Position numbers and translations under genes: made by a program. From contig CM000207.1 in the NCBI GenBank assembly GCA_000002445.1, forward strand, positions 704,001 to 768,000: a stretch of DNA of 64,000 nt, in the 5' to 3' direction. The notes beneath the pieces were generated by a model that was given only the letters and a program-made list of their open reading frames with translations, was not told where the DNA came from and did not search any database. Below, one piece after another: positions 3,235-57,214 of this stretch (position 1 is its first letter; each line of letters begins with the position of its first letter). The stretch comes from Trypanosoma brucei. Taxonomy: Eukaryota.

Positions 3235-5433
3235 ATGGGAGGGACGTCTACGAAGGAGTCACTTTTGTACTTCATGGATGTGGCGCGTGGTGTTTCCCCT
3301 CCGGATGAGAAGGACTTTTCCAGCCACTTGGGACGCTGTAGGAAGGAGCTCTGTTCGGGTGCTGAACTCTACAGGACGTTATTACCAATTATGCAGACCT
3401 TAATGCCTGCCAATGCCCAAGCATCTCAGGTTCAGTGGGTTGTGAGGTTCTGCTTAAAACAAGTTGAACATGCTTCCTGTAACTACAGTCAAGGCGTTAG
3501 TGACATCTTTCTTACCACAGTACGTGCTGTGCAGTTTGTGGTGCGTCACGCATGCGAAACTTCCCGTGGGGATGCCTCCCGCTTGCTGTGGACAATCGGT
3601 GAAGATCTAGGGGAGAGTGTACATGGTGCCTTGCGGGTCAGCACCACTGGTGATAGTGACACTGTATTCATGAATAGGTGGCTGTCCACCGGTATAGGTA
3701 AGCTGTGTATTGCGCTGGAAAAGTTTATTGTTTTTGTGCCTTTGACGGTGTCGACAGTGGAGGCACATGGTGAGGTCGTAAGCCTTCTTCTTTGCATGTG
3801 CTCTACTGCACTTTATCATTCGACTGCGTGCGACACGAACTTTACAGACCCCTTTACAAGACTTATTTTGGCGTCAGGCGACCTACATGCGCTTGTGCTG
3901 GTGCTGCTGCAACGACTTATGGACTGGGGTGAAGGTCGGCTCCCAAAGACACCAGTGTTATACCGCTGTGCCCAGTATTCGTCGTTGTGGACGCTTTACA
4001 ATATGTTCGCTGGTGGGACTGAAAATGAATCTATCACCTGCGGGAATCACCTTGGGCGGCACTGCGCACAGCTGTTGTCCGTTCTTGTATCGTATGGGAA
4101 AGGCTACAGACCGAATGAGGCACTACATTACATCGCAAGCTTAGGGGACTCCTCCCAGATTCAGGTCAAGGCCCTGTTAGTAACGTTTAACCGTCACGTA
4201 TTGCGATGCCCTGCCCTTTGCATTTTGCTGTACACCCTACTTCACGATAATCCGACATTTATCCACACCGTCATGACTGCCTACCCTGATGAATTTTTGG
4301 GGGTTATTCAGGGAGTGCTTCGTCTGAGCTATACGGCGTCATCAGAGGCTTGGGCTTCCGGTTTTAATTCAAGTGATGATGATATAGATGGTGGCCAATG
4401 CGCCATTCCTATCGTTGAAGATGCGATTACACCTGAAGCTGTTGCCAGTATTGTGCGTAGGATGACAGCATTTTCTTACCCGTTTATCAGCTTCATGACG
4501 GGAACATTGGTGCTCGTGTGTTCGCAAGATCAAGTAATTAACAAGCGTATGAGTAATACCATAGCTGAGACCACATTCAAGGTTGGCCGTCTGGTAGGTA
4601 GGTGCCCGGTGATTGCCGTTTGCATTGTGATCATCGTACACAGCATTGCCAGAGCGCTAAACGACGGAAACGAAGCACTGGCGGCTGTTTTTATTCCATG
4701 TCTAGCGAACTTTGCCCCATTCGTTCATGATATTGACGTGTACACTTCTCAGCGTTTGGTCGGGTTGCTTTTGTTAACGTTGCGGAAGGTACAGCGGACT
4801 GCGGAACATGCGCGCTCCGGGGCAGGAGATTGTTTGGGCACGTTAGAAGGTACAACTCCGGCTGGGGGTTGCAGTAGCGCTGATACATCAATTCAAATGT
4901 TTCTTCGTCAACTTCTTGCATTAACGGAGGCGGTTGGAGGGCTGTTGCAAGGTGATTGCCGAAACAATTATTCCTTCATATACGAACTGGTCTACCAACG
5001 CTCTCACTTGGAGGAAGGGGCGAAATTGCTGAGCACAGTTAGTTGTCATAGCTCTGAAGCCCAAACGGCTCTCCAGTCACTTCTTAGCGTTGCGAAATTC
5101 TACGATGAAGAAATAGCAAACTCTACCGCGACCGACTCGTACGGCGGCGCATTGGCCGTCATTCGGCAGGTGTCCCAAAACAAAGTTGTACCGACGGGGC
5201 CCTCGTCGCGGTTATCCGTGCGAACGGGAACATATGCGGCAACCGCAAGCGCAGATGTTGAATACTGCACCTCCCTGGAGATGGGCGAAATTCCTTTTCT
5301 GTATGAAGAGTCGACGTGCAGCTATGATTTCTTTGGGCCCTTCCTGTGGTCCACACTGTTGAGTGATGCTGCGTATCCAGGAGGCATATTGTGGGCGACG
5401 GATCTGTCTACGTTGGGGATATTCCCTCACTAA
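3235..5433 (+). CDS. hypothetical protein (732 aa); N-terminus MGGTSTK fits the N-myristoylation consensus MGxxxS/T
   Basis: Long uninterrupted ORF on the + strand starting at an ATG. No recognisable catalytic motif. Codon composition is similar to neighbouring genes. Confidence 0.45.
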   Translation: MGGTSTKESLLYFMDVARGVSPPDEKDFSSHLGRCRKELCSGAELYRTLLPIMQTLMPANAQASQVQWVVRFCLKQVEHASCNYSQGVSDIFLTTVRAVQFVVRHACETSRGDASRLLWTIGEDLGESVHGALRVSTTGDSDTVFMNRWLSTGIGKLCIALEKFIVFVPLTVSTVEAHGEVVSLLLCMCSTALYHSTACDTNFTDPFTRLILASGDLHALVLVLLQRLMDWGEGRLPKTPVLYRCAQYSSLWTLYNMFAGGTENESITCGNHLGRHCAQLLSVLVSYGKGYRPNEALHYIASLGDSSQIQVKALLVTFNRHVLRCPALCILLYTLLHDNPTFIHTVMTAYPDEFLGVIQGVLRLSYTASSEAWASGFNSSDDDIDGGQCAIPIVEDAITPEAVASIVRRMTAFSYPFISFMTGTLVLVCSQDQVINKRMSNTIAETTFKVGRLVGRCPVIAVCIVIIVHSIARALNDGNEALAAVFIPCLANFAPFVHDIDVYTSQRLVGLLLLTLRKVQRTAEHARSGAGDCLGTLEGTTPAGGCSSADTSIQMFLRQLLALTEAVGGLLQGDCRNNYSFIYELVYQRSHLEEGAKLLSTVSCHSSEAQTALQSLLSVAKFYDEEIANSTATDSYGGALAVIRQVSQNKVVPTGPSSRLSVRTGTYAATASADVEYCTSLEMGEIPFLYEESTCSYDFFGPFLWSTLLSDAAYPGGILWATDLSTLGIFPH

Positions 5434-6025: not shown

Positions 6026-8140
6026 ATGAAAAAGAGGAGGCCAATACCCAATCCTACAAAGATCAGTTCCTACTTTTTCCAGCAGCTGGTAAGCCCAGGT
6101 GCAACAACTCCGGATGATAGGAAGGAGCGTGCCCAGTCCGAGCAAACGAAGCGGGCTGCCGCGTCGGTGCTAAGTGAGTCGTTTACACCAGAGGGCGTCG
6201 CTGCTTTCCTTCAGAGTAGGTCAGAAATTGAGCGACAGCACAGTGAAGCGCTAGAGGATGTGCTTGATGCTTGTTGGAAGCGTGTTGAGGACATAATCGA
6301 GCGAAATAAGGAGCGCCGTCGGGTTATAGAGGAGGACATTCCCCAAGTTGTTGCTCCCACAGGCACGTTCACCTTTTGGACACCCGAGGGCGTTGAACAA
6401 TACTACAGCCTGAAAACTTTGCCCGTTTTTGCCAGTGATGAGGAAGGCGTCAGAAGCGACAGCAATGGCTTCGGTACCGACAATAGCAACGCAATGAAAA
6501 GTGATAGAAATGGCCCTGCTGCCGCTGACCATGCAGTAATTTCGCCTCAGGGTCGCTCAGCGGAGGACAAAGTTGACGGAAACGCAGCGGCAGAGGGGGA
6601 CGGGAGGACTGATCCGGTTGCTGAATTTTCATCCCAAAGGGCATGTGGCAGGGCGCCCATTGTGTCGGGAGCCCACCATACGAAGGGGCGGAAATTGACG
6701 GACAAAGAACTTCTTGATGAATCGAAGGTCCCCCATTGTCTGCGTCGGTTGTTCGCCTCACTTCTTAGGCGTCGCAACGAATTTCCCAAATCAACAACAC
6801 TTCTATTTGATGCAATCCAGCGAACGCAGTCGGAGAGATTTCCTGAAATTGAAGCGGTGATCGAAGATGTACCCTTTTCAATGCCTCTTCATCGACCATT
6901 TAGATGCATCGCTGCCTTCGTGGCCCGGTCTTTCGCAGAGAACCCCAAGGGTGAAGCACCTGAGCAGGCATTTGCTGCGACTTTCAAAACGGTGAGCAAA
7001 GATTTGAAGACGGCATACGAGAAACTGCATGAACTAAAGGGTTATGTGCACCCTGTGGGTGAACGAACAGATCGGGCGGAAGTCATCTACAAAACCCTTT
7101 TGGGTGAGTTGCAGGGTCGGAAGAGTCTTCATGAAACCTACGGTATTGATATAGAAGCCATAATGAAAGCATCGGCAGTGGAGCTGAGCGTGATGGAGGG
7201 GGCTCTTAAAGAGTGTAATGAAACATCCCGGAGGTTGCTTGCCACCATTGAGGATCAGACCGCACAGTTCATAGCTGACGTGCACACCAGCCTTGATCGA
7301 CGAGAGGAGGCTATAGAGGAAATTGCCTCGTTCTACAAGCGGGATCGTGATCGCCTGCAGTCGTCATTGCAGAGGAAGATTTATCGTGCGAAGAAGAGTG
7401 AGGAACTTCAAGAAAAGTGCGCTCGACGTATTCGGGAGGTTACGAAGGAGCTTTACATTGAGCAGGTCAATTACGAGGAGCTGCTGCAGGAAATATTGGC
7501 AGAGAGTTTGCTGCTACAGCAGCTGGACAGCAGCTACACGCAGTTGTCAAGTTCGCTTAATAACGCAGCTTCCGTTCATCAGGAATCAAAGATAAGCTCT
7601 ATTAGGGAGGCGCTTCAGCGGTCGGAAGATGTTCGTGTGCATCTCATTGAACAATGTCAGTTCCACATAAACCGACTTAAAAAGGACGAGCACTATCGGC
7701 TCTGCCGCTTAGCCACAAACGCCAAGGATAATGCATTGTGCTGGTCTCGCTGCCTGAACGACCTTTCAACAATATATGAGACTCACTTTAACTCCCTAAA
7801 TGAGAAGTGCAGGGTCTCCACGCAAATGCGTTACCTTCTTTCGTACGAGAAAGATTGCGTTTCTCGTGACCTGAACCAAGTTCAAAAGGAAATGGAACAG
7901 TTAGATAGCAAATGGCACGAAATTTCCACTCTCCTGGAGGAACTCGGTGAACCAGTTCCACCACTTTCATTACTTGAAAAGGACCCCTCGTGTGGAGAGC
8001 TCCGCCACGCTTTGACCGCACTGGCATTAACTCGCCTTGTGCATGGAGAGTCTTCCCACCTTGTGCGCCCCGAACAGTGGAGAGAGCGAACTGTTGTGGC
8101 CACCGGTGACGGCAGTGCGACTGCGAATGATATGTCGTAG
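6026..8140 (+). CDS. hypothetical protein (704 aa), predicted coiled-coil rich
   Basis: Long ORF starting at an ATG. The middle part is heptad-like and rich in E/K/R/L/Q. No enzymatic motif was recognised. Confidence 0.5.
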   Translation: MKKRRPIPNPTKISSYFFQQLVSPGATTPDDRKERAQSEQTKRAAASVLSESFTPEGVAAFLQSRSEIERQHSEALEDVLDACWKRVEDIIERNKERRRVIEEDIPQVVAPTGTFTFWTPEGVEQYYSLKTLPVFASDEEGVRSDSNGFGTDNSNAMKSDRNGPAAADHAVISPQGRSAEDKVDGNAAAEGDGRTDPVAEFSSQRACGRAPIVSGAHHTKGRKLTDKELLDESKVPHCLRRLFASLLRRRNEFPKSTTLLFDAIQRTQSERFPEIEAVIEDVPFSMPLHRPFRCIAAFVARSFAENPKGEAPEQAFAATFKTVSKDLKTAYEKLHELKGYVHPVGERTDRAEVIYKTLLGELQGRKSLHETYGIDIEAIMKASAVELSVMEGALKECNETSRRLLATIEDQTAQFIADVHTSLDRREEAIEEIASFYKRDRDRLQSSLQRKIYRAKKSEELQEKCARRIREVTKELYIEQVNYEELLQEILAESLLLQQLDSSYTQLSSSLNNAASVHQESKISSIREALQRSEDVRVHLIEQCQFHINRLKKDEHYRLCRLATNAKDNALCWSRCLNDLSTIYETHFNSLNEKCRVSTQMRYLLSYEKDCVSRDLNQVQKEMEQLDSKWHEISTLLEELGEPVPPLSLLEKDPSCGELRHALTALALTRLVHGESSHLVRPEQWRERTVVATGDGSATANDMS

Positions 8141-8596: not shown

Positions 8597-9553
8597 ATGG
8601 CTCCAGTAGTGTGGCCGTGCGCCCTTAACCCATCAAATCACATACTGGTGCAAGAGTTGCTGCTACACGCGTCATTAGGTCGTCACCGCCATTCCCTGAG
8701 GGACAGAAAGGACTTTTTTCACCTTGCTAGGCACATTTCCTGCCTCAAAGAACCTTGCAAATACCTCGTTTCTGCGCCACCAACCTCTCGTGGACCACTG
8801 TGGGCTCCTTGGCGAAGCACAGTCCCCCGGCAAATAGTTTTCAATCGTATACTCCGTCAGTGCACCGATACTTATACGCAATCATCCCATAAAGAAGACA
8901 AAGAAGACGAGGAGGGGAGACGCGTACCAGTGTTTTATGATGATGCCATTGCTCATTTGAACAGAATAGCAGAAGAACTGGGGCCACACGGATACAAAGT
9001 AACTCTGGTCGGAGCACTGCGACGCGGGTGCCCCGTTGCTTCCCGAGCTGAGTTCCTTTTGACGTACGATGATGACGATAGAATCAGGAAACATCGTGAC
9101 AACGACACCACTGTGTCCCACAGTGTTCATTTTGAGCGAGCGATACAGGGACTAAGGGCTTCCGGATACATCAAGCATCATAGGACAAAAAGAAAGATTG
9201 ATATTCACACAAAACAGTACATAACACTTGCTTCTAGGTCCCATTCACATCCAGAAACCCTCTCCACATCACGAGAGGAAAGACAGGTTTTGTCTATTAC
9301 CTGGTCAAAACCACAACAGTTTCACACGCGGCAGCTGTTCCTCACGGGCCCGAACCCATTCGTGGTGCACCTTGTGCTGCTGGCCCATGCGAAGGGCCTG
9401 GGACTGGATCCTTGCGGGTTGTACAAATCCCAATTAGGGTTTCGGGAGTCTGTGGCACTTGAATGTGAAAGGGACATCTTCGCTGCGTTGCAGTTGCCGT
9501 ACGTTGAGCCCATTCACCGCCATGCATACTGCCGCGTTCACAACCTGTTTTGA
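8597..9553 (+). CDS. Pol X family (DNA polymerase beta-like) nucleotidyltransferase-fold protein, possibly non-canonical
   Basis: The C-terminal half aligns by eye to Pol beta palm and thumb. GALRRG(x5)AEFLLTYDDDD corresponds to GSFRRG(x5)DMDVLLTHP. KRKIDIHTKQY corresponds to RRIDIRLIPKDQY. FLTGPNPFVVHLVLLAHAKGLGL corresponds to [21 protein letters not shown]. The C-terminal ERDIFAALQLPYVEPIHRHA corresponds to the Pol X tail E(x)DIF..LGL.Y.EP..R. The two positions aligned to catalytic Asp190/Asp192 read R and E here. Confidence 0.45.
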   Translation: MAPVVWPCALNPSNHILVQELLLHASLGRHRHSLRDRKDFFHLARHISCLKEPCKYLVSAPPTSRGPLWAPWRSTVPRQIVFNRILRQCTDTYTQSSHKEDKEDEEGRRVPVFYDDAIAHLNRIAEELGPHGYKVTLVGALRRGCPVASRAEFLLTYDDDDRIRKHRDNDTTVSHSVHFERAIQGLRASGYIKHHRTKRKIDIHTKQYITLASRSHSHPETLSTSREERQVLSITWSKPQQFHTRQLFLTGPNPFVVHLVLLAHAKGLGLDPCGLYKSQLGFRESVALECERDIFAALQLPYVEPIHRHAYCRVHNLF

Positions 9554-9728
9554 GAGCGCCCGCGCCTTCCTTTTATTTGTTCTCCATGGGATATTGCTGT
9601 TCTTTAACTTCCTAACTGTATGGTTTTCTGTCGCATGTGTCGTCACAGACGCGCATCACTTTTTATACGACTAGATATGCCGCGTTACAGAGACCTATCG
9701 ATTGCCTGATTAAGTACTCTTGCAGGTG

Positions 9729-9793
9729 TTGCTTTGTCTTCTCCGCACTATTACTCATTCCCTTTTTCTTTACTGATTTTTTCTGGTATGAAG
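9729..9793 (+). promoter_or_regulatory. polypyrimidine tract plus AG (putative trans-splice acceptor region for RPS7)
   Basis: ttgctttgtcttctccgcactattactcattccctttttctttactgattttttctggtatgaAG lies immediately upstream of the RPS7 ATG. The same tract precedes the BRAP2-like gene at 22716 to 22750. Confidence 0.4.
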
Positions 9794-9815
9794 GCACTTC
9801 TATACACTAAGGGTG

Positions 9816-10424
9816 ATGTCCGCACAACCGCACCTCCGCAAGCTGCGTAAGCTCAAGCGCGCCAACCCGTCTCAGGAGGAGGAGGGCGTCGCGAGGGTGC
9901 TCTTTGAATTGGAAGGCTCCCACAAGACTCTCCGCGCGCAGTTGCCCCGCTTCCATATAAACACTGTTCGCACGTCGTCGAGTCCCCGTCACAAGAAGAC
10001 AGCTATGATCATTTTGTACCCGTTGCGTTTTATCATGCTTGTACGCAAGATTCAGCGAACGCTTACGGCAGAGCTCGAGAAGCGCTTCCCCGGAAACATT
10101 GTTGTGCTTGTTGCGCAGCGCAAGATAACGAAGCGACCGAATGATGTGTACAAGCTTCAGCAGGTGCAACGTTCCCGTACGAGCGTAGCGGTGTTTGAGA
10201 ATATCTTGAATGATCTTATATATCCGTGTGACGTGGTGGGCCGCCGTTGGCGTTACCGTACGGATGGGAGTAAGCTGATGAAAGTGTTCTTGGACGCCCG
10301 TGACCGCAAGAGGGTGGAGTCGAGACTTCCCCTTCTTGCCCACGTCTACAAGTTGTTGACGCACCGAACTGTCACCTTCGGGTTCATGTGGAACCCTAAG
10401 TTGCAGCAAGTGTCCTCCCGGTAG
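9816..10424 (+). CDS. RPS7: 40S ribosomal protein S7 (eS7), copy 1
   Basis: MSAQPHLRKLRKLKR..IVVLVAQRKI..RTLTAELEKRF..RSRTSVAVFENILNDLIYPCDVVGRRWRYRTDGSKLMKVFLDARDRK..VYKLLTHRTVTFGF aligns along its length with eukaryotic RPS7 (human ...[46 protein letters not shown]...). The track ORF starts at GTG 9813; the first ATG is at 9816. Confidence 0.85.
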   Translation: MSAQPHLRKLRKLKRANPSQEEEGVARVLFELEGSHKTLRAQLPRFHINTVRTSSSPRHKKTAMIILYPLRFIMLVRKIQRTLTAELEKRFPGNIVVLVAQRKITKRPNDVYKLQQVQRSRTSVAVFENILNDLIYPCDVVGRRWRYRTDGSKLMKVFLDARDRKRVESRLPLLAHVYKLLTHRTVTFGFMWNPKLQQVSSR

Positions 10425-10975
10425 ATGAGTTTCGCCCAGCTACTTTGAAGGTGCCATTATCAGTTTTTTGTTTTGATTTATTTTCACTACGCTGCCATCC
10501 TCGGTTGTGTAGTGCTAGAAAATGAAATGACACATGTCAGTACTGAAACTAGTGTAAGTTACAACCTCGAAGCTGCCTGTGTTTCCATGTTAGTCACCCC
10601 TTTGACATTTTCTTACCTTTTTGCTCATTAGTATTTTATGCTGGTGATAGACGCCCACTTTGGTGGTTCCTATGTGATGCAGCGAGTGAGATGAGGTGGC
10701 ATGCTATACTTCACTTCCGTGAGCTGCGTCACCACAGGTTCACCAACCCCTTCTCCACTGCGTGAGGATCGCGTGGTAAAAGCGTTTTCCGTGTTGGTGT
10801 CTTGTAGTAGAGTCATCCGAATGTGCCTCTCGCGGATAATGTGATTTATGTTTCCCACTGTTGCAGGCGGCTGCGAGTAGTCGGGTGCATCACAGATCAG
10901 CTTAGATTTCGCACAAGATCTGAGGCCCCGGAAGGTGTTTTCAAGCCTCTTCCTTATCGTCTTGGCGCTACGTTG

Positions 10976-11143
10976 TGGTTACTCCAATCGCATACCAACC
11001 AAGGCCTGAATGCCAGGATATCGAGCTTAGGAGCGAATATCGACAAGGCCAGACAGCGTGGCGAACAGCAGGTTGCGTTAAAGGAAGAGGAGTTAAGGGA
11101 TCTGCAGGGGAGACTTGAGAGTTTGATGAGGGATTTGGAGTGA
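10976..11143 (+). pseudogene. orphan 3' fragment (last 55 codons) of the BRAP2-like gene fused behind RPS7
   Basis: The track ORF 10823 to 11143 ends with LLQSHTNQGLNARISSLGANIDKARQRGEQQVALKEEELRDLQGRLESLMRDLE. That is identical to the C-terminus of the 22777 to 24432 gene. The upstream 51 codons have no counterpart in that gene and begin at GTG. Confidence 0.5.
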
Positions 11144-11543
11144 TGGTTTTCGGCGTCGTCTTGTCATCCCATCCCGCCTCCCTTCCGTATCATGCTGCGT
11201 CATTCCCCTTCGCCACTTATCAACACAGTCGTGTGCACTCCTACTGTTCTCACATCAGTCAGTGCAGCTTAGTTACCTCGTTTGGCTTACTTTGACTTAA
11301 GTACCTTTTTTTGTGCTCATTGCGGTTGCTGTATGACTGCCAGCTCTCAGATGTCTGGACTTTCCATTCTCTTTATGTTGACCCTACACACCTGCCCCAC
11401 ACTGCATTTCCCCCCACCGTTCCCTGTTTGCACCTTCCTGCTGTATGGGTGGTGTAAAATACCCATTAGCATTATAGCAGTTGGTGGCTTGTTAATAACT
11501 GAAGTTCGGATTACCGTGGCGAGTAAAGGTTTCCGGTGATATT

Positions 11544-12629
11544 ATGGTCGTCAAACGCCGTGGAAATGGCCGGTTAGGCAAACCTCCGACAGATACTGGA
11601 GTGAGTGAGAACTCTACCGGTGGAACCCCACCCCCGGAGTCTGCTTCTCAACGTGGCGGGGCGAAACAAACTACGGTTGCTTCCGCGATCAAGCAGCCCG
11701 CTTCGATGCCCGACGGCTCGTTGTCGCAGGATCGACGAAAGCGCCGCCGTAGGTTATCGGTGCCAGAGGAGGTGGCCCATGCCGTTGTGGAGGGGGAAGA
11801 AGCTACAGGTGCTGTAAGGGATGAAAGACTACCCGAAAATACTCGAGTTGTTGAACCTCAATTGAATGATCATGATGGTAAAGAGAGATACCCTCTGGGC
11901 GTTGTCCAGTTCCCAGAGGAGCAGCGCCCGTGGAGGAGCGCAAGGCGTAAAGCTGGGGTAGCTGAGGGAGGTAGTGACGAGGTTAACGCCGCACAGCTTC
12001 CTCCGACGGGCAACGCTGTGCCGCAGAAACCAACTAGGCGTTTAGGTAGAGCATCTGCCCCTCCGATACCACCTGTCGGTACTGTTGAACATGATTTGCA
12101 GACAACTGGTGGAACGTGTACGAGTGCTCCTATTGCGGGTGACCGCGCTTCCCGAACGTTTCAGGCGGCGGCGAGCCCCTCCGAAGATATTAAACAAAGG
12201 CCGCATAGAATTCCATTGATAATAGATAAGGGGCGTTTCAGTAAGCAAAAAGTCGAGGCTCCTCCCGGGACCGCAACCGTGGTGCCCATGGACACTGGAG
12301 AAAACCAGGCTGGCGTTTGTGAAGCAAACTCCGCACCACCAACTTCCTGTTCCCACCGTGGCGCCCAGCGCTTGGGGCATGGCCAACCTGCTGATGGCAC
12401 AAGTGGTGCTGTTGATAGTATAGAGGAGGGGCCCGGGCGCGGAATTGAGGAAGCCTCCGTGGACGCGCGACGTAGGAGGTTTATGCAGGTGCCGGTGAGC
12501 AGAATCTCGTTGTATACACGGCTTGCCGAGGGGGGTTTGGATGCTGCCGACCGCCCATTTGTCACATGTGTGGTAAAACATGCCCAATCGTCTGTTTCCG
12601 CATGGGTATCCGGGTTCTTGTCGCCTTGA
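11544..12629 (+). CDS. hypothetical protein (361 aa), Pro/Arg/Ser-rich, copy 1
   Basis: ORF from an ATG, duplicated at 18031 to 19116 with 3 aa differences. Low-complexity basic and proline-rich composition; no motif recognised. Confidence 0.45.
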   Translation: MVVKRRGNGRLGKPPTDTGVSENSTGGTPPPESASQRGGAKQTTVASAIKQPASMPDGSLSQDRRKRRRRLSVPEEVAHAVVEGEEATGAVRDERLPENTRVVEPQLNDHDGKERYPLGVVQFPEEQRPWRSARRKAGVAEGGSDEVNAAQLPPTGNAVPQKPTRRLGRASAPPIPPVGTVEHDLQTTGGTCTSAPIAGDRASRTFQAAASPSEDIKQRPHRIPLIIDKGRFSKQKVEAPPGTATVVPMDTGENQAGVCEANSAPPTSCSHRGAQRLGHGQPADGTSGAVDSIEEGPGRGIEEASVDARRRRFMQVPVSRISLYTRLAEGGLDAADRPFVTCVVKHAQSSVSAWVSGFLSP

Positions 12630-13920
12630 TGTGAGTGATGCTTTTATTTTTTCTTTGGAGGTGTGCGAATTTCTGTTTCTTGAAACAGATACTGACCGAT
12701 GGAGGGTCGTTGTTTTTCTTAGTTGGCTGTGCTGCTGGTGAAAGCACATTGTGAATGGGATAAATGGGTGTGAGGGTTTTCTTTCTAAATTTCTGCTGGC
12801 GGTTTATCCCTCATATTGTTTGCCTGAACTGGAGTGAATACAGTTCTCTTTTTGATACGGCTTCCTTTGCCGGTTGAACGGGGACACGCCTTCTTATTGG
12901 TTCTGTCGTGTACGCTTTTTCAGTGTAGTATTGGAGGGACTAACAGTGTGAGGAGCGGTGCCGAACCCAGTTGAACGCCTGTCATTGTGTGTGATGCCTG
13001 TACAACCGTGTTTCGGTTGCTTTGATTGCTCGATTGGCTGTGCGGCAGCCGTTGTGAAGGTGATGTAATCCCTTCAGTTGATGTGGCTTCTGCAGGTTGT
13101 TTCTTCCGGTGCGCGGGAACGGCAGACATAAGTGGTATATGTTTGGCTAGATACCGGCACTACTCTATAGGTTTACTTTTACTCTACTTTTTTTTTGTGT
13201 GTGTGCTTCCACTCACTTTGGTGTTCTGTTGCTGAGGCGGTGTTGCAACTGTGTCAGTGAACAGTACGCCATCTACGGATAGCACTACCGGCAGTCGGTT
13301 GCCGCTGGCGGTTGCTCATGAGGAGGTTTGTATTTACCTGCCGGTGGGTTGGCTTCTTGATGGGAGGTTAACAGGCGTGGGTGCCTTGTATGGTATCAGA
13401 TATTTCTCTAGGATGAAGGTTATGCACCATTACCATACCGTGGAGTTCGCCGTAATAAGGTGAAGTCATTTGAGCAGTAGTTCCTTTTGCTGTCATCTCT
13501 TGGTATATTATTGCCAAAAATACCTGTGCTATTGCTGCTACGTTGTAACCATGTCCTCTTTTGTGTTCAGTAACGGGGGTAGTGACTGTGACGACATATT
13601 CCGAGGCCGCATCGAGTTGTGTTTGACATTTGCCCTCCGTGTCGTAGCTTATACAACCTTCGTGGGTGGTGGTGCACATGTTTGTGTGCCCTGCAACGTC
13701 GCCGTTCACTACTTCAATTTTTTTGTACCCACTTGCGGATGAAACTTTTAGTCGGTATGTTCCCTTCTGGAATGACAGAGGGGAAGGACTGGTGATGTGC
13801 CGGTCGTCCCTCATTGTTGGTCTTTTCTCTTCTTGAACACGTAAATGCAAGCAGTGTCATAGCTATATTTTGGGGTGAAGAAAGGGCGAGGTTCACCTTC
13901 ATTTGGTTGGATTGCTGGGT

Positions 13921-14535
13921 ATGTCTACATCCCGCATTACGTTGTCGTCACAGCACGATGCACTGATAATTGTGGATATGCAGAATGATTTCGTGCTTCC
14001 CGACGGTGCGCTCTCCGTAACTGGTGCCACTGAGATCATACCGATAATTAATCGCGTTGTCGGAGATCACCAGTTTCGTGCCGTTGTCGCATCGATGGAC
14101 TGGCACCCTCCTGGACACATGTCGTTCCGAAATGAAGATGGGACAGGGGGTCCATGGCCTCCCCATTGCGTACGGTCAACGACTGGTGCCCAACTTCATT
14201 CAGAGATGAAACAAGGAGAGATAACCCACCTTATTCACAAGGCGACATCTCTGGATTCTGAAAGTTACTCCGCCTTCAGCGATGACAGCGGTAAGACAAC
14301 CGGTCTGGCTGCAATGCTGCGCGCCATGGACGTGAGAAGGGTTTTTATGTGTGGCGTAGCTTCCGATTACTGTGTATACTTTACCTCACTACACGCTATC
14401 CAAGAGGAATTTACCGTTGTTGTGTTGGAGGACGCCGTTCGCCCCGTCGACCCTGTTGCCATGGAGAAGAAGCGAGCACACCTGGAAAAGGAGGGCGTAA
14501 TCTTTGCGCGAAGCACAGACCTTTCCAGCTTCTGA
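13921..14535 (+). CDS. nicotinamidase / pyrazinamidase (isochorismatase family), copy 1
   Basis: ALIIVDMQNDFVLPDGALSV...WHPPGHMSF...WPPHCVRSTTGAQLH...VFMCGVASDYCVYFTSLHA carries the Asp, Lys and Cys catalytic-triad context and the metal-binding His/Asp pattern typical of PncA-type nicotinamidases. The track ORF begins at TTG 13903; the first ATG is at 13921. Confidence 0.75.
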   Translation: MSTSRITLSSQHDALIIVDMQNDFVLPDGALSVTGATEIIPIINRVVGDHQFRAVVASMDWHPPGHMSFRNEDGTGGPWPPHCVRSTTGAQLHSEMKQGEITHLIHKATSLDSESYSAFSDDSGKTTGLAAMLRAMDVRRVFMCGVASDYCVYFTSLHAIQEEFTVVVLEDAVRPVDPVAMEKKRAHLEKEGVIFARSTDLSSF

Positions 14536-15808
14536 GTCGGAGGTGGCTTCTTCTAGTGGTTCCTCCAGAAGTGTGGGACCGCGTAGGTGTGCCTAAGTGA
14601 TGAACGACAGGATGGAATGTAATGTGCTAATAATATGGGGCTGGGTGGCGGTGGTGGTGGTGAGCATGTCAAGGCGTACAGTGAGGGCTAGGTATATGCA
14701 ATCACCACCGTTATCATTGATTCTCAAGTGCATATTCCCAATAGGGCCACACATGCGCTCATGTACGGTCTCCTAAGGTGTATGTATGTGTGCGTTAGGT
14801 GTGTATGAAGCGAGCAAAGAAGAGAGGGGGGTCGAAATGGATGGCTCGGCAAACGGGTCTGCCAACTATTTTCTTCCCTCTCCCTTGGTTCTATTGCCTT
14901 GGTCGTTTTGCCATTTGAAAGACCTCTTCTTTGTTTTTTCTTCCATTGCACCGCGCCCGTCCCCGACGCCACCGGGTTCCCATTTTTTTTGTAACTGAAA
15001 AGAGGGACGGTACTGACACTTGGGGCGAATAACGGACACTAAGCGAACCTCACCCCTGAGTCTTCCCCACAAGGTGTTGGTTGCCGCGCAACAGAAGAAA
15101 TGGCGGGGTAGTAAGTGATGTGCGCGCGTACATGCACGATCCTGCGCGGCATCCGAAATTAATGGGCGGCGAGCTTTTGCTTACGGTTGGCCCTTGACAT
15201 GTGCGTTCAAATGGTGATGCCCTTCCATCATTTGCCGCAGTAACTTTTTTCCAGTGCAAACTCACAAGACATGCATTTGGAACATATTGGCGCTGGGGAT
15301 GTCAGGTGCCAACAGGGGTACTCTGTTTAATTGACGGTCAATAGCAGACAGCGTTTGTGTGATCTCCCTTTACCAGGCTGCAGATCCGTAGGGGTTGCCG
15401 AGTGGGAAGCCATCCGTTACGTTCCTGTCCCATTCCTCTCTTCCTCACACATGATGGTCGCAGCCGCCTGTAGGTATAATGTATTACCTATGGGTACAGT
15501 GAGCATTTGTTTGGAATAAAATGCCTTTTGCGACCATACAACAACCTACGCGTAATCGGCTACACTTATGCCTGAGCTGGTCGTGCGTAGGTCGCGTGTC
15601 TTGAAGGATGGTGCCGGGTTGACATGGGCTTCGGACTCTCATGAAGAGTGTCGATTCTTGTGGTATGCGCTGGTGCTATTTATATTGGAGTGATGTCTAC
15701 TGTGTGGAATCACAGCATGATGGCTTTGTGTGACGATTACCCGCCATTGGATTGAAATGTACTGCTTTGAACAGGTTGTGTGGCTGTGCCCACTGTCATT
15801 AATCGTAT

Positions 15809-16040
15809 TTACACGCGGCAGCTGTTCTTCACGGGCCCGAACCCATTCGTGATGCACCTTGTGCTGCTAACCCATGCGAAGGGCCTGGGACTGGATCCTT
15901 GAGGGTTGTACAAATCCCAATTAGGGTTTCGGGAGTCTGTGGCACTTGAATGTGAAAGGGACATCTTCGCTGCGTTGCAGTTGCCGTACGTTGAGCCCAT
16001 TCACCGCCATGCATACTGCCGCGTTCACAACCTGTTTTGA
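15809..16040 (+). pseudogene. detached 3' fragment of the Pol X-like gene (last ~77 codons)
   Basis: Translation TRQLFFTGPNPFVMHLVLLTHAKGLGLDPxGLYKSQLGFRESVALECERDIFAALQLPYVEPIHRHAYCRVHNLF matches the C-terminus of 8597 to 9553. The upstream sequence is unrelated to that gene. Confidence 0.45.
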
Positions 16041-16302
16041 GAGCGCCCGCGCCTTCCTTTTATTTGTTCTCCATGGGATATTGCTGTTCTTTAACTTCCT
16101 AACTGTATGGTTTTCTGTCGCATGTGTCGTCACAGACGCGCATCATTTTTTATACGACTAGATATGCCGCGTTACAGAGACCTATCGATTGCCTGATTAA
16201 GTACTCTTGCAGGTGTTGCTTTGTCTTCTCCGCACTATTACTCATTCCCTTTTTCTTTACTGATTTTTTCTGGTATGAAGGCACTTCTATACACTAAGGG
16301 TG

Positions 16303-16911
16303 ATGTCCGCACAACCGCACCTCCGCAAGCTGCGTAAGCTCAAGCGCGCCAACCCGTCTCAGGAGGAGGAGAGCGTCGCGAGGGTGCTCTTTGAATTGGA
16401 AGGCTCCCACAAGACTCTCCGCGCGCAGTTGCCCCGCTTCCATATAAACACTGTTCGCACGTCGTCGAGTCCCCGTCACAAGAAGACAGCTATGATCATT
16501 TTGTACCCGTTGCGTTTTATCATGCTTGTACGCAAGATTCAGCGAACGCTTACGGCAGAGCTCGAGAAGCGCTTCCCCGGAAACATTGTTGTGCTTGTTG
16601 CGCAGCGCAAGATAACGAAGCGACCGAATGATGTGTACAAGCTTCAGCAGGTGCAACGTTCCCGTACGAGCGTAGCGGTGTTTGAGAATATCTTGAATGA
16701 TCTTATATATCCGTGTGACGTGGTGGGCCGCCGTTGGCGTTACCGTACGGATGGGAGTAAGCTGATGAAAGTGTTCTTGGACGCCCGTGACCGCAAGAGG
16801 GTGGAGTCGAGACTTCCCCTTCTTGCCCACGTCTACAAGTTGTTGACGCACCGAACTGTCACCTTCGGGTTCATGTGGAACCCTAAGTTGCAGCAAGTGT
16901 CCTCCCGGTAG
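16303..16911 (+). CDS. RPS7: 40S ribosomal protein S7 (eS7), copy 2
   Basis: Identical to copy 1 except G25S (EEEGVARV becomes EEESVARV). Confidence 0.85.
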   Translation: MSAQPHLRKLRKLKRANPSQEEESVARVLFELEGSHKTLRAQLPRFHINTVRTSSSPRHKKTAMIILYPLRFIMLVRKIQRTLTAELEKRFPGNIVVLVAQRKITKRPNDVYKLQQVQRSRTSVAVFENILNDLIYPCDVVGRRWRYRTDGSKLMKVFLDARDRKRVESRLPLLAHVYKLLTHRTVTFGFMWNPKLQQVSSR

Positions 16912-17462
16912 ATGAGTTTCGCCCAGCTACTTTGAAGGTGCCATTATCAGTTTTTTGTTTTGATTTATTTTCACTACGCTGCCATCCTCGGTTGTGTAGT
17001 GCTAGAAAATGAAATGACGCATGTCAGTACTGAAACTAGTGTAAGTTACAACCTCGAAGCTGCCTGTGTTTCCATGTTAGTCACCCCTTTGACATTTTCT
17101 TACCTTTTTGCTCATTAGTATTTTATGCTGGTGATAGACGCCCACTTTGGTGGTTCCTATGTGATGCAGCGAGTGAGATGAGGTGGCATGCTATACTTCA
17201 CTTCCGTGAGCTGCGTCACCACAGGTTCACCAACCCCTTCTCCACTGCGTGAGGATCGCGTGGTAAAAGCGTTTTCCGTGTTGGTGTCTTGTAGTAGAGT
17301 CATCCGAATGTGCCTCTCGCGGATAATGTGATTTATGTTTCCCACTGTTGCAGGCGGCTGCGAGTAGTCGGGTGCATCACAGATCAGCTTAGATTTCGCA
17401 CAAGATCTGAGGCCCCGGAAGGTGTTTTCAAGCCTCTTCCTTATCGTCTTGGCGCTACGTTG

Positions 17463-17630
17463 TGGTTACTCCAATCGCATACCAACCAAGGCCTGAATGC
17501 CAGGATATCGAGCTTAGGAGCGAATATCGACAAGGCCAGACAGCGTGGCGAACAGCAGGTTGCGTTAAAGGAAGAGGAGTTAAGGGATCTGCAGGGGAGA
17601 CTTGAGAGTTTGATGAGGGATTTGGAGTGA
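17463..17630 (+). pseudogene. orphan 3' fragment of the BRAP2-like gene, copy 2
   Basis: Identical to 10976 to 11143. Confidence 0.5.
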
Positions 17631-18030
17631 TGTTTTTCGGCGTCGTCTTGTCATCCCATCCCGCCTCCCTTCCGTATCATGCTGCGTCATTCCCCTTCGC
17701 CACTTATCAACACAGTCGTGTGCACTCCTACTGTTCTCACATCAGTCAGTGCAGCTTAGTTACCTCGTTTGGCTTACTTTGACTTAAGTACCTTTTTTTG
17801 TGCTCATTGCGGTTGCTGTATGACTGCCAGCTCTCAGATGTCTGGACTTTCCATTCTCTTTATGTTGACCCTACACACCTGCCCCACACTGCATTTCCCC
17901 CCACCGTTCCCTGTTTGCACCTTCCTGCTGTATGGGTGGTGTAAAATACCCATTAGCATTATAGCAGTTGGTGGCTTGTTAATAACTGAAGTTCGGATTA
18001 CCGTGGCGAGTAAAGGTTTCCGGTGATATT

Positions 18031-21022: not shown

Positions 21023-22295
21023 GTCGGAGGTGGCTTCTTCTAGTGGTTCCTCCAGAAGTGTGGGACCGCGTAGGTGTGCCTAAGTGATGAACGACAGGAT
21101 GGAATGTAATGTGCTAATAATATGGGGCTGGGTGGCGGTGGTGGTGGTGAGCATGTCAAGGCGTACAGTGAGGGCTAGGTATATGCAATCGCCACCGTTA
21201 TCATTGATTCTCAAGTGCATATTCCCAATAGGGCCACACATGTGCTCATGTACGGTCTCCTAAGGTGTATGTATGTGTGCGTTAGGTGTGTATGAAGCGA
21301 GCAAAGAAGAGAGGGGGGTCGAAATGGATGGCTCGGCAAACGGGTCTGCCAACTATTTTCTTCCCTCTCCCTTGGTTCTATTGCCTTGGTCGTTTTGCCA
21401 TTTGAAAGACCTCTTCTTTGTTTTTTCTTCCATTGCACCGCACCCGTCCCCGACGCCACCGGGTTCCCATTTTTTTTGTAACTGAAAAGAGGGACGGTAC
21501 TGACACTTGGGGCGAATAACGGACACTAAGCGAACCTCACCCCTGAGTCTTCCCCACAAGGTGTTGGTTGCCGCGCAACAGAAGAAATGGCGGGGTAGTA
21601 AGTGATGTGCGCGCGTACATGCACGATCCTGCGCGGCATCCGAAATTAATGGGCGGCGAGCTTTTGCTTACGGTTGGCCCTTGACATGTGCGTTCAAATG
21701 GTGATGCCCTTCCATCATTTGCCGCAGTAACTTTTTTCCAGTGCAAACTCACAAGACATGCATTTGGAACATATTGGCGCTGGGGATGTCAGGTGCCAAC
21801 AGGGGTACTCTGTTTAATTGACGGTCAATAGCAGACAGCGTTTGTGTGATCTCCCTTTACCAGGCTGCAGATCCGTAGGGGTTGCCGAGTGGGAAGCCAT
21901 CCGTTACGTTCCTGTCCCATTCCTCTCTTCCTCACACATGATGGTCGCAGCCGCCTGTAGGTATAATGTATTACCTATGGGTACAGTGAGCATTTGTTTG
22001 GAATAAAATGCCTTTTGCGACCATACAACAACCTACGCGTAATCGGCTACACTTATGCCTGAGCTGGTCGTGCGTAGGTCGCGTGTCTTGAAGGATGGTG
22101 CCGGGTTGACATGGGCTTCGGACTCTCATGAAGAGTGTCGATTCTTGTGGTATGCGCTGGTGCTATTTATATTGGAGTGATGTCTACTGTGTGGAATCAC
22201 AGCATGATGGCTTTGTGTGACGATTACCCGCCATTGGATTGAAATGTACTGCTTTGAACAGGTTGTGTGGCTGTGCCCACTGTCATTAATCGTAT

Positions 22296-22527
22296 TTACA
22301 CGCGGCAGCTGTTCTTCACGGGCCCGAACCCATTCGTGATGCACCTTGTGCTGCTAACCCATGCGAAGGGCCTGGGACTGGATCCTTGCGGGTTGTACAA
22401 ATCCCAATTAGGGTTTCGGGAGTCTGTGGCACTTGAATGTGAAAGGGACATCTTCGCTGCGTTGCAGTTGCCGTACGTTGAGCCCATTCACCGCCATGCA
22501 TACTGCCGCGTTCACAACCTGTTTTGA
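22296..22527 (+). pseudogene. detached 3' fragment of the Pol X-like gene, copy 3
   Basis: Track ORF 22267 to 22527 (86 aa) reproduces the last ~77 residues of 8597 to 9553. Confidence 0.45.
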
Positions 22528-22749
22528 GAGCGCCCGCGCCTTCCTTTTATTTGTTCTCCATGGGATATTGCTGTTCTTTAACTTCCTAACTGTATGGTTT
22601 TCTGTCGCATGTGTCGTCACAGACGCGCATCATTTTTTATACGACTAGATATGCCGCGTTACAGAGACCTATCGATTGCCTGATTAAGTACTCTTGCAGG
22701 TGTTGCTTTGTCTTCTCCGCACTATTACTCATTCCCTTTTTCTTTACTG
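22296..22749 (+). repeat. partial third copy of the tandem unit (Pol X-like 3' fragment plus downstream UTR and polypyrimidine tract)
   Basis: Matches 9322 to 9775 and 15809 to 16262. Homology ends inside the pyrimidine tract ctttttctttactgatt, after which the BRAP2-like gene body begins. Confidence 0.75.
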
Positions 22750-22776
22750 ATTGGTGTTGATAGTATATTTTTTGAA

Positions 22777-24432
22777 ATGAGTGTCACCGGCTTCGGTGAT
22801 GTTGTTGTATCTTTTGATGCGGAAGGTGTTGTAGTTGTTGGGCTAACTTATGAGCGTTCAAATGCGACACAGTGGTTGCTGCTCCCGGAAATTCCCGTTG
22901 AAGTCCCTCTTGTTAAGGTTCTTCGTGATCTTGAGGAATCTGGTGCTTCTCGACAACGGTCACCTGGTCGAATGAGGGGAGAAGGAGTTAAAGGAGATGT
23001 TTGTTTGCCAGACAGTGAAGTTGGATCACCTTGTAACGCGTGCGGTGTTAATAACATTCGTAGTGATTGTTGCATTTCTGTTGCTCGTGTGGGGCACATT
23101 CCGGAACGAAATCGCGCATACTGTTTGCTTTTGGAGTTGTCATCTTCTTCTGATGCCGCTGATGTGCAAAGAGATCTGCTGCACGTCGAGTGGGCTAATG
23201 GGCCCTTGTGTGCACCGCAGTTTTTGCAGTCCGTCGGCCGTATAATGAGGGTGGAGCATGAAGGGCGTGATGCCGCATGCGTGAGCAACTGCGCGGGTTG
23301 GCGGACACAAGTGTCTACGGACAATGCGGAAGATGTTTGCCTACGTGTCCTTTGCAGTGTGTCGTGCGGTGTTGATGGGGCGTCATCTCGGCGGCAGTTG
23401 GAAAGTGAAAAGGAGATATCTAGCGTTGCGCTCCGGAGAGACGCTCCTCTAGCACCGATAGAAGAGTTTTGCCCCATCTGCCGTGAGGAAATCGCATCTG
23501 GAAGAACGTGCGTTGTTACTATGTGCACCCACGTCTTCCACCTTGTTTGCCTCATGAAGCACTTAGAAGATGTTAGTTCATATTGCCCTCTTTGTCGTTT
23601 TTCGATGTCGTCTCTTGAAACTAAGTGCAACGCGTGTGGAACGTGCCAGGACTTGTGGAGTTGTTTAGTTTGCGGTTGGGTGGGATGTGGTAAGGGGCGG
23701 CACGGACATAGCATACGGCACTTCCACAGCACAGGGCACTCGTGTGCCGTGCAGAATAGCACTTCACGCATATGGAACTATCGCGCCAGCACATTTCTCC
23801 ACCACCAACTAGCTATGGAATTGGGTTACGAAGACGACGCAAGGGCGGAGCGTGCTGCAGCGCAGGAGGAGGGCAGGTCGGCCCTCTCTGTTCGTCACAG
23901 CGGGGAAAAACCCAGGGTCAGTGCTTCATCCTATTGGCGCAGTAGGTGGTGGTGGGACGAAAAGGAAGAGGAAGCTGCACAAGAGCTCAATGGCGACTAT
24001 GTGCGGGAGTATTATCTCCGTGTAATGGAGGAACTCATGCAGGAACAGGCGGACTATTTTGAGGGGCGTACAATGGTGGAGGGAGAGAATGCGGCTGTAC
24101 CCATCGGGACATGGAAGAAGCTGCAAAGCGCAGAACGGCGTCAACGGCGTAGTCTTGCTTCGAGGTACATTGCTGGTTTGCGCCGTATTGCGCTACACAG
24201 CCAGATGGCCGTCAACAATTTTGTGAAGCAGGAGGTCTTATGGAGGGATTCGTTGCGTGAAGAGTTATTACTCCAATCGCATACCAACCAAGGCCTGAAT
24301 GCCAGGATATCGAGCTTAGGAGCGAATATCGACAAGGCCAGACAGCGTGGCGAACAGCAGGTTGCGTTAAAGGAAGAGGAGTTAAGGGATCTGCAGGGGA
24401 GACTTGAGAGTTTGATGAGGGATTTGGAGTGA
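22777..24432 (+). CDS. BRAP2/IMP-like E3 ubiquitin ligase (RING-H2 plus ZnF-UBP plus coiled coil)
   Basis: The RING-H2 is CPICREEIASGRTCVVTMCTHVFHLVCLMKHLEDVSSYCPLCR. The ZnF-UBP is CNACGTCQDLWSCLVCGWVGCGKGRHGHSIRHFHSTGHSCAVQNSTSRIWNY, which follows the BRAP2 pattern C..CG....LW.CL.CG..GCGR...HA..H...H. A long E/R/Q-rich coiled coil follows. The track ORF starts at TTG 22708; the first ATG is at 22777. Confidence 0.65.
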   Translation: MSVTGFGDVVVSFDAEGVVVVGLTYERSNATQWLLLPEIPVEVPLVKVLRDLEESGASRQRSPGRMRGEGVKGDVCLPDSEVGSPCNACGVNNIRSDCCISVARVGHIPERNRAYCLLLELSSSSDAADVQRDLLHVEWANGPLCAPQFLQSVGRIMRVEHEGRDAACVSNCAGWRTQVSTDNAEDVCLRVLCSVSCGVDGASSRRQLESEKEISSVALRRDAPLAPIEEFCPICREEIASGRTCVVTMCTHVFHLVCLMKHLEDVSSYCPLCRFSMSSLETKCNACGTCQDLWSCLVCGWVGCGKGRHGHSIRHFHSTGHSCAVQNSTSRIWNYRASTFLHHQLAMELGYEDDARAERAAAQEEGRSALSVRHSGEKPRVSASSYWRSRWWWDEKEEEAAQELNGDYVREYYLRVMEELMQEQADYFEGRTMVEGENAAVPIGTWKKLQSAERRQRRSLASRYIAGLRRIALHSQMAVNNFVKQEVLWRDSLREELLLQSHTNQGLNARISSLGANIDKARQRGEQQVALKEEELRDLQGRLESLMRDLE

Positions 24433-24976
24433 TGTTTTTCGGCGTCGTCTTGTCATCCCATCCCGCCCCCCTTCCGTATCATGCTGCGTCATTCCCCTTC
24501 GCCACTTATCAACACAGTCGTGTGCACTCCTACTGTTCTCACATCAGTCAGTGCAGCTTAGTTACCTCGTTTGGCTTACTTTGACTTAAGTACCTTTTTT
24601 TGTGCTCATTGCGGTTGCTGTATGACTGCCAGCTCTCAGATGTCTGGACTTTCCATTCTCTTTATGTTGACCCTACACACCTGCCCCACACTGCATTTCC
24701 CCCCACCGCTCCCTGTTTGCACCTTCCTGCTGTATGGGTGGTGTAAAATACCCATTAGCATTATAGCAGTTGGTGGCTTGTTAATAACTGAAGTTCGGAT
24801 TACCGTGGCGAGTAAAGGTTTCCGGTGATATTATGGTCGTCAAACGCCGTGGAAATGGCCGGTTAGGCAAACCTCCGACAGATACTGGAGTGAGTGAGAA
24901 CTCTACCGGTGGAACCCCACCCCCGGAGTCTGCTTCTCAACGTGGCGGGGCGAAACAAACTACGGTTGCTTCCGCG
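24270..24976 (+). repeat. dispersed copy of the T segment (BRAP2 3' end, intergenic, first 48 codons of the 361-aa gene)
   Basis: Near-identical to 10976 to 11687 and 17463 to 18174. ORFs 24571 to 24828 and 24833 onward mirror 11282 to 11539 and 11544 onward. Confidence 0.75.

Positions 24977-57177: not shown

Positions 57178-57180
<3 letters not shown>

Positions 57181-57210: not shown

Positions 57211-57214
<4 letters not shown>

Follow-up and report, generated by a model that had tools for sequence, protein, structure and literature searches.

Analysis of a 64,000-nt stretch of the Trypanosoma brucei genome (NCBI GenBank assembly GCA_000002445.1, contig CM000207.1, positions 704,001 to 768,000 of the forward strand; referred to below as the window, with coordinates counted from its first letter) revealed a complete gene whose product is related to the family X DNA polymerases (Pol X). 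The gene is annotated yet uncharacterised and belongs to a family of dead Pol X proteins that occurs throughout the kinetoplastids. It is part of a same-strand gene run typical of a trypanosomatid polycistron, in which it is preceded by a Dymeclin gene (3235-5433) and a gene for a 704-amino-acid (aa) hypothetical protein (6026-8140) and followed by RPS7e and, farther downstream, a RING/zf-UBP gene. The deduced protein is exactly identical to T. brucei brucei TREU927 EAN76475/XP_803692/Q38FE5, which is labelled in databases as "hypothetical protein, conserved" or "DNA polymerase beta thumb domain-containing protein," and the T. b. gambiense and T. equiperdum alleles differ from it by 3 to 5 residues. 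The start codon is supported by a conserved N-terminal motif that opens 6 to 10 residues past the Met in all orthologs. The protein is basic, with an isoelectric point (pI) of 9.4 for the whole chain and 10.2 for the N-terminal domain (aa 1-95). The features of the gene, with model confidence given as the predicted local distance difference test (pLDDT), are as follows.

8597..9553, plus strand: complete Pol X-like gene, an uninterrupted open reading frame (ORF) of 318 aa with the stop codon at 9551-9553
8597..8881, plus strand: N-terminal basic helical domain (aa 1-95), delimited by AlphaFold helices, the family alignment and pI
8882..8917, plus strand: acidic low-confidence linker (aa 96-107), with pLDDT below 50 at aa 96-103
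8918..9310, plus strand: Pol X palm subdomain (aa 108-238), aligned with Pol beta 146-261
9011..9055, plus strand: "GALRRGCPVASRAEF," corresponding to Pol beta G179-V193 "GSFRRGAESSGDMDV," with the structural G-x-x-R-R-G retained and the metal ligands replaced
9041-9055, plus strand: SRAEF (aa 149-153), with the R150 codon at 9044-9046 and the E152 codon at 9050-9052
9194..9208, plus strand: "KIDIH" (aa 200-204), non-homologous to the catalytic strand and not conserved
9293..9295, plus strand: S233, in "QVLSITW," where Pol beta has its third catalytic Asp (D256; D490 in Pol lambda)
9311..9520, plus strand: Pol X thumb, C-terminal subdomain (aa 239-308), PF14791, pLDDT 93-98
9521..9550, plus strand: family-specific C-terminal tail "HAYCRVHNLF" (aa 309-318), which runs past the canonical Pol beta end

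Searching the T. brucei protein against Pfam identified the Pol beta thumb domain PF14791 at aa 247-308 (E value, 4.5e-13; 49.3 bits against a cutoff of 25) and no domain beyond it. A profile built from three Trypanosoma sequences and compared with the Protein Data Bank (PDB) by HMMER matched Pol lambda (E value, 2e-4) and, across palm and thumb (aa 135-311), TdT (E value, 6e-4). The HMMER search of 1.84 billion representatives returned 219 matches with E values below 1e-3, including 20 below 1e-10, and 24 sequences among the best matches were taken as the family alignment. The Pol X alignment used for comparison was headed by human Pol beta (335 aa, with D at 190, 192 and 256). Profile-profile comparison of the two alignments by hhalign joined residues 108-312 of the query to Pol beta 146-335 with a probability of 99.2% and an E value of 2.4e-19. 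The first-pass annotation had read the C-terminal half as Pol beta palm and thumb, and the hhalign and PF14791 matches confirm this for residues 108-312; a lack of any significant Pol X match, which it had named as one of two outcomes that would refute its reading, was not encountered.

The structural predictions agree with the profile comparisons. The AlphaFold2 model generated from the 24-sequence alignment reached a mean pLDDT of 81.6, with 93 to 98 in the thumb, compared with a pLDDT of 38.9 from a 3-sequence alignment. Searching the PDB with Foldseek gave Pol lambda or Pol beta for all of the best 50 matches (E values of about 1e-13 to 1e-14), and the alignments to full-length Pol beta or Pol lambda covered about 300 to 360 columns. 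A palm homologous to the Pol beta-type nucleotidyltransferase fold and the Pol X-specific PF14791 thumb are both present. The protein is similar in size to Pol beta (318 aa and 335 aa, respectively) and conserves the motifs GxxRRG, (Y/F)xTG and SExDIF...P..R; in the thumb, "LFLTGP" corresponds to YFTGS of Pol beta and "ERDIFAALQLPYVEPIHR" to "EKDIFDYIQWKYREPKDR." The protein is a true Pol X derivative with a retained thumb and not a generic nucleotidyltransferase (NTase) fold. In the profile search, the Pol beta of Leishmania infantum scored an E value of 0.058, versus 2e-4 for Pol lambda, and kinetoplastid Pol beta is not nearer to the family than are Pol lambda, Pol mu or TdT.

Comparison of the catalytic residues revealed that the metal ligands are replaced. 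Pol beta G179-H197 was aligned to G139-Y157 by hhalign, and TdT "GGFRRGKMTGHDVDFLIT" was aligned by HMMER to "VGALRRGCPVASRAEFLLT" of the window protein. Both alignments set SRAEF opposite GDMDV/HDVDF, with R150 in place of D190 and E152 in place of D192, just as the first-pass annotation had read by eye for the first two catalytic Asp residues. Its proposal that the third Asp was kept in KIDIH proved wrong: both methods set S233 opposite D256, 31 residues downstream of KIDIH. Pol lambda "RHRRLDIIVVP," TdT "RVDLVMCP" and Pol beta "RRIDIRLIP" all lie opposite "ERQVLSITWSK," and the spacing to the T-G turn of the thumb is 17 residues in both proteins (D256-T273 in Pol beta, S233-T250 in the T. 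brucei protein). KIDIH itself is an insert state of the family profile in hhalign and is absent in T. grayi, T. rangeli and other Trypanosoma orthologs, the closest of which have "GRI---V" or "YGGVV" there. A run of four Asp residues, DDDD (aa 158-161; given as 9070 to 9081 in the first-pass annotation), follows the second strand. Had these residues fallen on the catalytic positions, the first-pass reading would have been refuted; no alignment sets them at a metal-ligand site. As they are also not conserved, DDDD was rejected as a set of alternative metal ligands. Simple misalignment, which had been considered at first, is excluded because three independent routes, i.e., HMMER against the PDB, hhalign and the structure-based match, concur on one register. 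All three catalytic Asp residues are therefore lost in the T. brucei protein (R150, E152 and S233), and two-metal nucleotidyl transfer would not be possible for it.

Alignment of the 24 homologs revealed that the loss extends to the whole family. The triad of D190, D192 and D256 (Pol beta numbering) is found in none of them, and the replacing residues vary. The D190 position is never Asp (0/24; H, R, Q, A, M, S and others), nor is the D256 position (0/24; V, R, T, A, K and others), and the D192 position is E or D in 15/24 and T, L or M in other Trypanosoma species. At least two carboxylates at triad positions occur only in Phytomonas (V/E/E). A syntenic 341-aa protein outside the 24-sequence alignment (P0184) has S and Q at the first two triad positions. 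Positions equivalent to the contacts of Pol beta with the deoxynucleoside triphosphate (dNTP) and the nascent base pair (R149, S180, G189, D276, N279, K280 and R283) are variable or hydrophobic; among R149, S180, R183, G189, D276, N279 and R283, the only conserved contact is R183, whose equivalent in T. brucei is R143 (21/24). The retention of this dNTP-contacting Arg, together with the acidic nature of E152 and the acidic run after the strand, could speak for a still-active nucleotidyltransferase that uses alternative acidic residues, e.g., E152 and the DDDD loop. Such an enzyme is highly improbable, as other Trypanosoma species have T, L or M in place of E152, the DDDD run lacks conservation, two carboxylates at the triad positions occur in the Phytomonas homolog only, and the positions contacting the triphosphate and the base pair are variable. 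A template-independent nucleotidyltransferase, one of the options of the first-pass annotation, is likewise very unlikely to be active because no metal-ligand position is conserved across the 24 homologs and residue 152 varies (E/T/L/M) within Trypanosoma. Its other option, a pseudo-polymerase, is supported by the loss of the triad in the T. brucei protein and in all 24 homologs, and more strongly than it had assumed because the third Asp is also lost.

The residues that build the fold are retained. In the palm, G179 is conserved in 22/24, R182 in 24/24, R183 in 21/24 and G184 in 23/24 homologs; in the thumb, T273 and G274 are found in 24/24, F278 in 23/24, E316 in 22/24, P330 in 23/24 and R333 in 24/24. 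The T. brucei equivalents of this core include R142 (R182), G144 (G184), T250, G251, E291 (E316) and R308 (R333). The homologs derive from Trypanosoma, Leishmania, Phytomonas, Novymonas and further kinetoplastid contigs. Named members are those of T. grayi, T. rangeli, Phytomonas, Leishmania braziliensis with six other Leishmania species in the same cluster, L. tarentolae, Novymonas and Lotmaria, the last of which falls in the P0010 cluster; T. rangeli is represented by a fragment of 207 aa, whereas full-length orthologs are available from the other named taxa and from uncharacterised kinetoplastid contigs. Orthologs from Leishmaniinae and several other kinetoplastids are 400 to 660 aa long, and their extra length consists of low-complexity insertions at the junction between N-terminal domain and palm, within the palm and within the thumb. 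The linker (aa 96-107 in T. brucei) is enlarged by about 100 to 250 residues in Leishmaniinae and other kinetoplastids. No domain was detected by Pfam in the L. tarentolae protein or in P0024, a compact distant member, and a search of phage records for homologs gave no match.

The genomic neighborhood of the gene is conserved as well. The same Dymeclin-to-RING order flanks the 595-aa protein of L. tarentolae, two divergent proteins on Logan contigs and the compact 341-aa protein P0184, which is encoded on an environmental scaffold where very short spacers separate genes of the same strand. This order was found in every contig with readable flanking genes. The conservation of synteny from the environmental kinetoplastid scaffold to Leishmania and Trypanosoma argues for a selected function. 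A nearly invariant structural skeleton beside lost catalytic and substrate-contacting residues marks a fold that selection has preserved beyond the end of catalysis, not a gene in decay.

The N-terminal region takes the place of the 8-kDa and fingers domains of Pol beta. Four helices are predicted there by AlphaFold (residues 12-27, 34-48, 54-58 and 75-94), and the motif "HP(A/S)NHxxVQELLL" (aa 11-23) recurs in almost every full-length member. The stretch ahead of the palm counts about 107 residues, compared with about 148 in Pol beta, i.e., about 40 fewer. Comparison of the N-terminal 110 aa with Pol beta 1-150 by hhalign gave its best match between aa 33-54 and Pol beta 32-53; this is the site that an 8-kDa domain would predict, and the profile match is not significant (E value, 0.54). 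The region is collinear with the Pol beta 8-kDa/fingers region, with a homology that is not statistically supported. No helix-hairpin-helix (HhH) glycine hairpin and no mappable K72 were found in the T. brucei protein, and the HhH of the fingers subdomain (GIG hairpin) is missing from its sequence in the family alignment. Two compact distant members, P0024 and P0025, retain one "IPGVGRS" hairpin, which in HMMER alignments falls either on the HhH of the Pol beta fingers or, without significance, on that of the Pol lambda 8-kDa domain; their syntenic relative P0184 has a degenerate "EGAG" at the hairpin site. The first-pass annotation had seen no evident 8-kDa lyase or HhH region. This stands for the T. 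brucei sequence, which lacks HhH motifs and whose N terminus matches Pol beta at an E value of 0.54, and needs amendment in view of the predicted four-helix domain, the near full-length Foldseek alignments and the distant orthologs with IPGVGRS. We conclude that the family derives from a Pol beta-like protein of full size and that the HhH elements were lost in the Trypanosoma proteins. An 8-kDa lyase domain is not claimed for the T. brucei protein.

Self-comparison of the window by BLAST revealed that the 3' end of the gene is part of a tandem repeat. The repeat units and the thumb relics are as follows.

9321..15807, plus strand: first repeat unit, 6,487 bp, starting inside the gene at about codon 242-243
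15808-22294: second repeat unit, 99.7% identical
22295-22752: partial third repeat unit
15808..16040, plus strand: thumb relic copy 2, with no upstream coding part and with an in-frame stop (TGC to TGA) in the DNA alignment
22295..22527, plus strand: thumb relic copy 3, open, within a mechanical 86-aa ORF that starts with GTG (22267..22527) and otherwise with no upstream part

As noted in the first-pass annotation, the 3' end of the gene was copied three times: its last 233 nt (9321-9553), essentially the thumb, recur at 15808 and 22295. Copies 2 and 3 are relics. Besides the part of the gene that encodes the thumb and the flank behind it, the unit contains RPS7e, a remnant of the RING gene (its 3' end), a 361-aa ORF and an isochorismatase ORF, as shown by self-BLAST and by Pfam analysis of the ORFs. 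A repeat junction inside the ORF, two non-functional 3' relics and lost catalytic residues are also what would be expected of a decaying pseudogene or of a functionless chimeric by-product of the local tandem duplication. Origin as a duplication chimera was rejected because orthologs from repeat-free genomes match the intact gene collinearly from end to end. The invariance of specific residues over 24 homologs from several kinetoplastid genera, the synteny in every contig in which flanking genes could be read and the confident AlphaFold model likewise stand against a gene without function, and we regard this explanation as extremely unlikely.

Both relic copies carry V257M and A263T relative to the intact TREU927 gene (region of 9365 and 9383), and the intact-gene allele of T. 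equiperdum bears exactly these two substitutions. This match suggests that the functional gene and the relics have undergone gene conversion with each other. The repeat unit also holds a 711-bp copy (99.6% identity) of the 3' end of the RING/zf-UBP gene, the corresponding segments of the window being 10979-11689, 17466-18176 and 24268-24978, and a 106-aa ORF (10823..11143) shares its last approximately 52 residues with the 574-aa RING protein encoded at 22708..24432. In L. tarentolae and on the environmental kinetoplastid scaffold, the gene order is simpler, with the PolX-like gene followed by one or two RPS7e genes and the RING gene. The T. brucei array therefore looks like the result of a lineage-specific insertion and unequal crossing-over.

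Taken together, the gene is interpreted as an ancient, catalytically inactive paralog of the family X DNA polymerases, a selected pseudo-polymerase of kinetoplastids that acts non-enzymatically; we assign this reading a probability of roughly 60%. A non-enzymatic function is inferred because the protein is basic, keeps the Pol beta-shaped cleft and conserves family-specific surfaces, namely, the "HPANHxxVQELLL" helix at the N terminus, residue H120 of the first helix of the palm and the "YCQ" tail at the C terminus, for which the family alignment gives the consensus "YCQxxxL" in trypanosomatid members. The protein would act through its basic, Pol beta-shaped body and these lineage-specific surfaces. 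It may bind nucleic acid (DNA ends or gaps, or RNA), a partner enzyme or both, and it could serve as a stoichiometric adaptor or stabilising subunit. Such a mode would parallel the reported action of DAPX1 with a mitochondrial RNA deaminase in diplonemids.

Several observations weigh against this reading. Nucleic-acid binding is deduced just from charge and fold, and the HhH motifs, which provide most of the grip of Pol X enzymes on the DNA backbone, are absent in the Trypanosoma proteins. The acidic residue at position 152 in 15/24 homologs could hint at a residual single-metal or structural role. T. brucei has no counterpart of the PPR-DYW partner of DAPX1 (bioRxiv 10.64898/2026.09.04.749523). 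Literature searches with the accession, the product name and presumed IDs of genes at this locus turned up no functional work on the gene, just a table entry in a 2020 survey (PMC7576959).

The closest functional precedent found is DAPX1 of Diplonema papillatum (gene DIPPA_70088), which is likened here to the T. brucei protein by its published description. Diplonemids are the sister group of kinetoplastids, and none of the homologs retrieved was assignable to a diplonemid. According to a September 2026 preprint (bioRxiv 10.64898/2026.09.04.749523), DAPX1 resides in mitochondria, resembles PolX proteins, retains a PF14791 thumb and has substitutions at catalytic residues; it copurifies in a 1:1 ratio with PPRD1, a PPR-DYW deaminase, and both C-to-U and A-to-I editing depend on it. 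In the published model, the deaminase is held by the 8-kDa and palm regions of DAPX1, with the nucleic-acid face exposed. Both proteins are euglenozoan and PolX-like, with a recognisable PF14791 thumb and substituted catalytic residues, and DAPX1 has been proposed to be a non-catalytic partner or scaffold with an exposed nucleic-acid-binding face, as is proposed here. In contrast, DAPX1 is mitochondrial and bound to a PPR-DYW deaminase, and T. brucei has no PPR-DYW protein according to the preprint. Because T. brucei lacks a PPR-DYW gene and DAPX1 was compared by description, the parallel would be one of "works like" and not of "is a member of."

A closer relationship would make the kinetoplastid protein the counterpart of DAPX1, either as its ortholog or as a functional analogue, i.e., a mitochondrial non-catalytic core subunit of an RNA-modifying enzyme, not a PPR-DYW deaminase in this case, whose RNA-binding surface it both stabilises and extends. 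The divergent PolX domain of DAPX1, with most catalytic residues substituted, its mitochondrial location and its 1:1 association with PPRD1 are compatible with this, as are the sister-group relationship and the age of the kinetoplastid family, which is old enough to occur in compact genomes of free-living kinetoplastids and whose members are dead at the same sites. The kinship rests on the description of DAPX1 and not on a sequence comparison, however, and outside the PolX domain DAPX1 has no significant similarity to non-diplonemid proteins (bioRxiv 10.64898/2026.09.04.749523). In addition to the missing PPR-DYW protein, sequence inspection revealed that the kinetoplastid proteins open directly with the conserved domain, with no obvious cleavable presequence. 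We therefore consider this assignment doubtful. Equally tentative is the idea of a common origin, in which a single non-catalytic Pol X gave rise both to DAPX1 and to the dead Pol X of kinetoplastids after it had been enlisted, prior to the divergence of the two lineages, as a core subunit that binds nucleic acid in an organellar machine for RNA or DNA processing. If this common ancestry were true, the trypanosome protein would be an unrecognised subunit of a mitochondrial complex acting on kinetoplast DNA or in RNA processing, with a partner that is not a PPR-DYW deaminase.

The origin of the fold from a gap-filling polymerase and the basic charge of the protein would also suit a non-catalytic factor that binds DNA gaps or ends in kinetoplast or nuclear DNA metabolism, e.g., by masking or marking minicircle gaps, or a "prozyme"-type partner of the active mitochondrial Pol beta or Pol beta-PAK. 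Trypanosomatids repeatedly employ dead paralogs as activating subunits (AdoMetDC prozyme, DHS and PRMT1). Two active mitochondrial Pol beta enzymes act at minicircle gaps in T. brucei (Saxowsky et al. 2003, as cited in PMC7576959 and PMC8375306). On the other side stand the missing HhH DNA-binding hairpins in Trypanosoma and the fact that the family lies as far from kinetoplastid Pol beta as from Pol lambda, Pol mu and TdT, or farther. Pol X enzymes, moreover, normally act as monomers. This role is therefore judged to be unlikely. Like the trypanosomatid prozymes and other NTase-fold pseudoenzymes of the Pol beta superfamily, the T. brucei protein represents a dead enzyme paralog retained under selection; unlike them, it retains the thumb, which sets it apart from the generic NTase fold. 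The comparison with Pol beta itself is similarly divided. The N-terminal helical domain sits in the place of the 8-kDa/fingers region, whereas all three catalytic Asp residues are replaced, the dNTP and minor-groove contacts are not conserved, the Trypanosoma proteins have no HhH hairpins, and the kinetoplastid proteins carry family-specific N- and C-terminal motifs.

The selected pseudo-polymerase proposed here corresponds to entries already present in the literature. A survey from 2020 lists "Pol beta (thumb domain)" entries Tbg972.9.2070 and TcCLB.506829.30 (Front Cell Infect Microbiol 2020, PMC7576959), which belong to the family described here; the T. b. gambiense protein and the T. brucei protein encoded in the window share 99% identity. 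The survey left the homology open ("7-14% similarity... remains to be confirmed") and called the gene absent from Leishmania and Bodo (PMC7576959). In contrast, palm and thumb homology is established here, the loss of the triad was found, and syntenic orthologs were identified in Leishmania and on an environmental (free-living) kinetoplastid scaffold. The published statement of absence from Leishmania is thereby corrected; it was probably due to the L. tarentolae ortholog having no Pfam domain. The protein goes unmentioned in a review from 2021 devoted to the Pol beta-like enzymes of trypanosomatids (PMC8375306). Inventories of trypanosomatid polymerases count the gene as a possible third Pol beta; it is now relabelled as a pseudoenzyme and leaves the repair-polymerase counts. 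As DAPX1, the only functionally studied dead Pol X, is a core mitochondrial RNA-editing factor in the sister lineage, the gene is a testable candidate for a subunit in kinetoplastid nucleic-acid metabolism.

Further features were observed elsewhere in the window. The 361-aa ORF within the repeat is duplicated (11544-12629 and 18031-19116) and has no Pfam domain. The telomere-associated protein TelAP3 is encoded by two identical genes on chromosome 9, Tb927.9.3930 and Tb927.9.4000, and is reportedly restricted to the T. brucei group (PMC5888660, PMC8311970, bioRxiv 10.1101/2024.05.22.595291). The position of the 361-aa ORF and the spacing of the duplicate gene IDs fit TelAP3, for which it is a candidate. 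A 1,314-aa ORF (26061-30005) gave weak matches to AAA-type P-loop domains and may, by position only, be HYP2 (Tb927.9.4080), a factor in quorum sensing and stumpy induction with "truncated AAA+ and adenylation domains" (PMC4403954). Four AMP-binding genes resembling fatty acyl-CoA synthetases are located at 35926-38022, 39436-41562, 42942-45068 and 46441-48567, the last three inside a tandem repeat of about 3.5 kb with 97 to 98% identity. Markedly AT-rich stretches were found at 30001-36000 (GC content, 0.32 to 0.38) and 56001-60000 (about 0.40), compared with about 0.50 elsewhere in the window.

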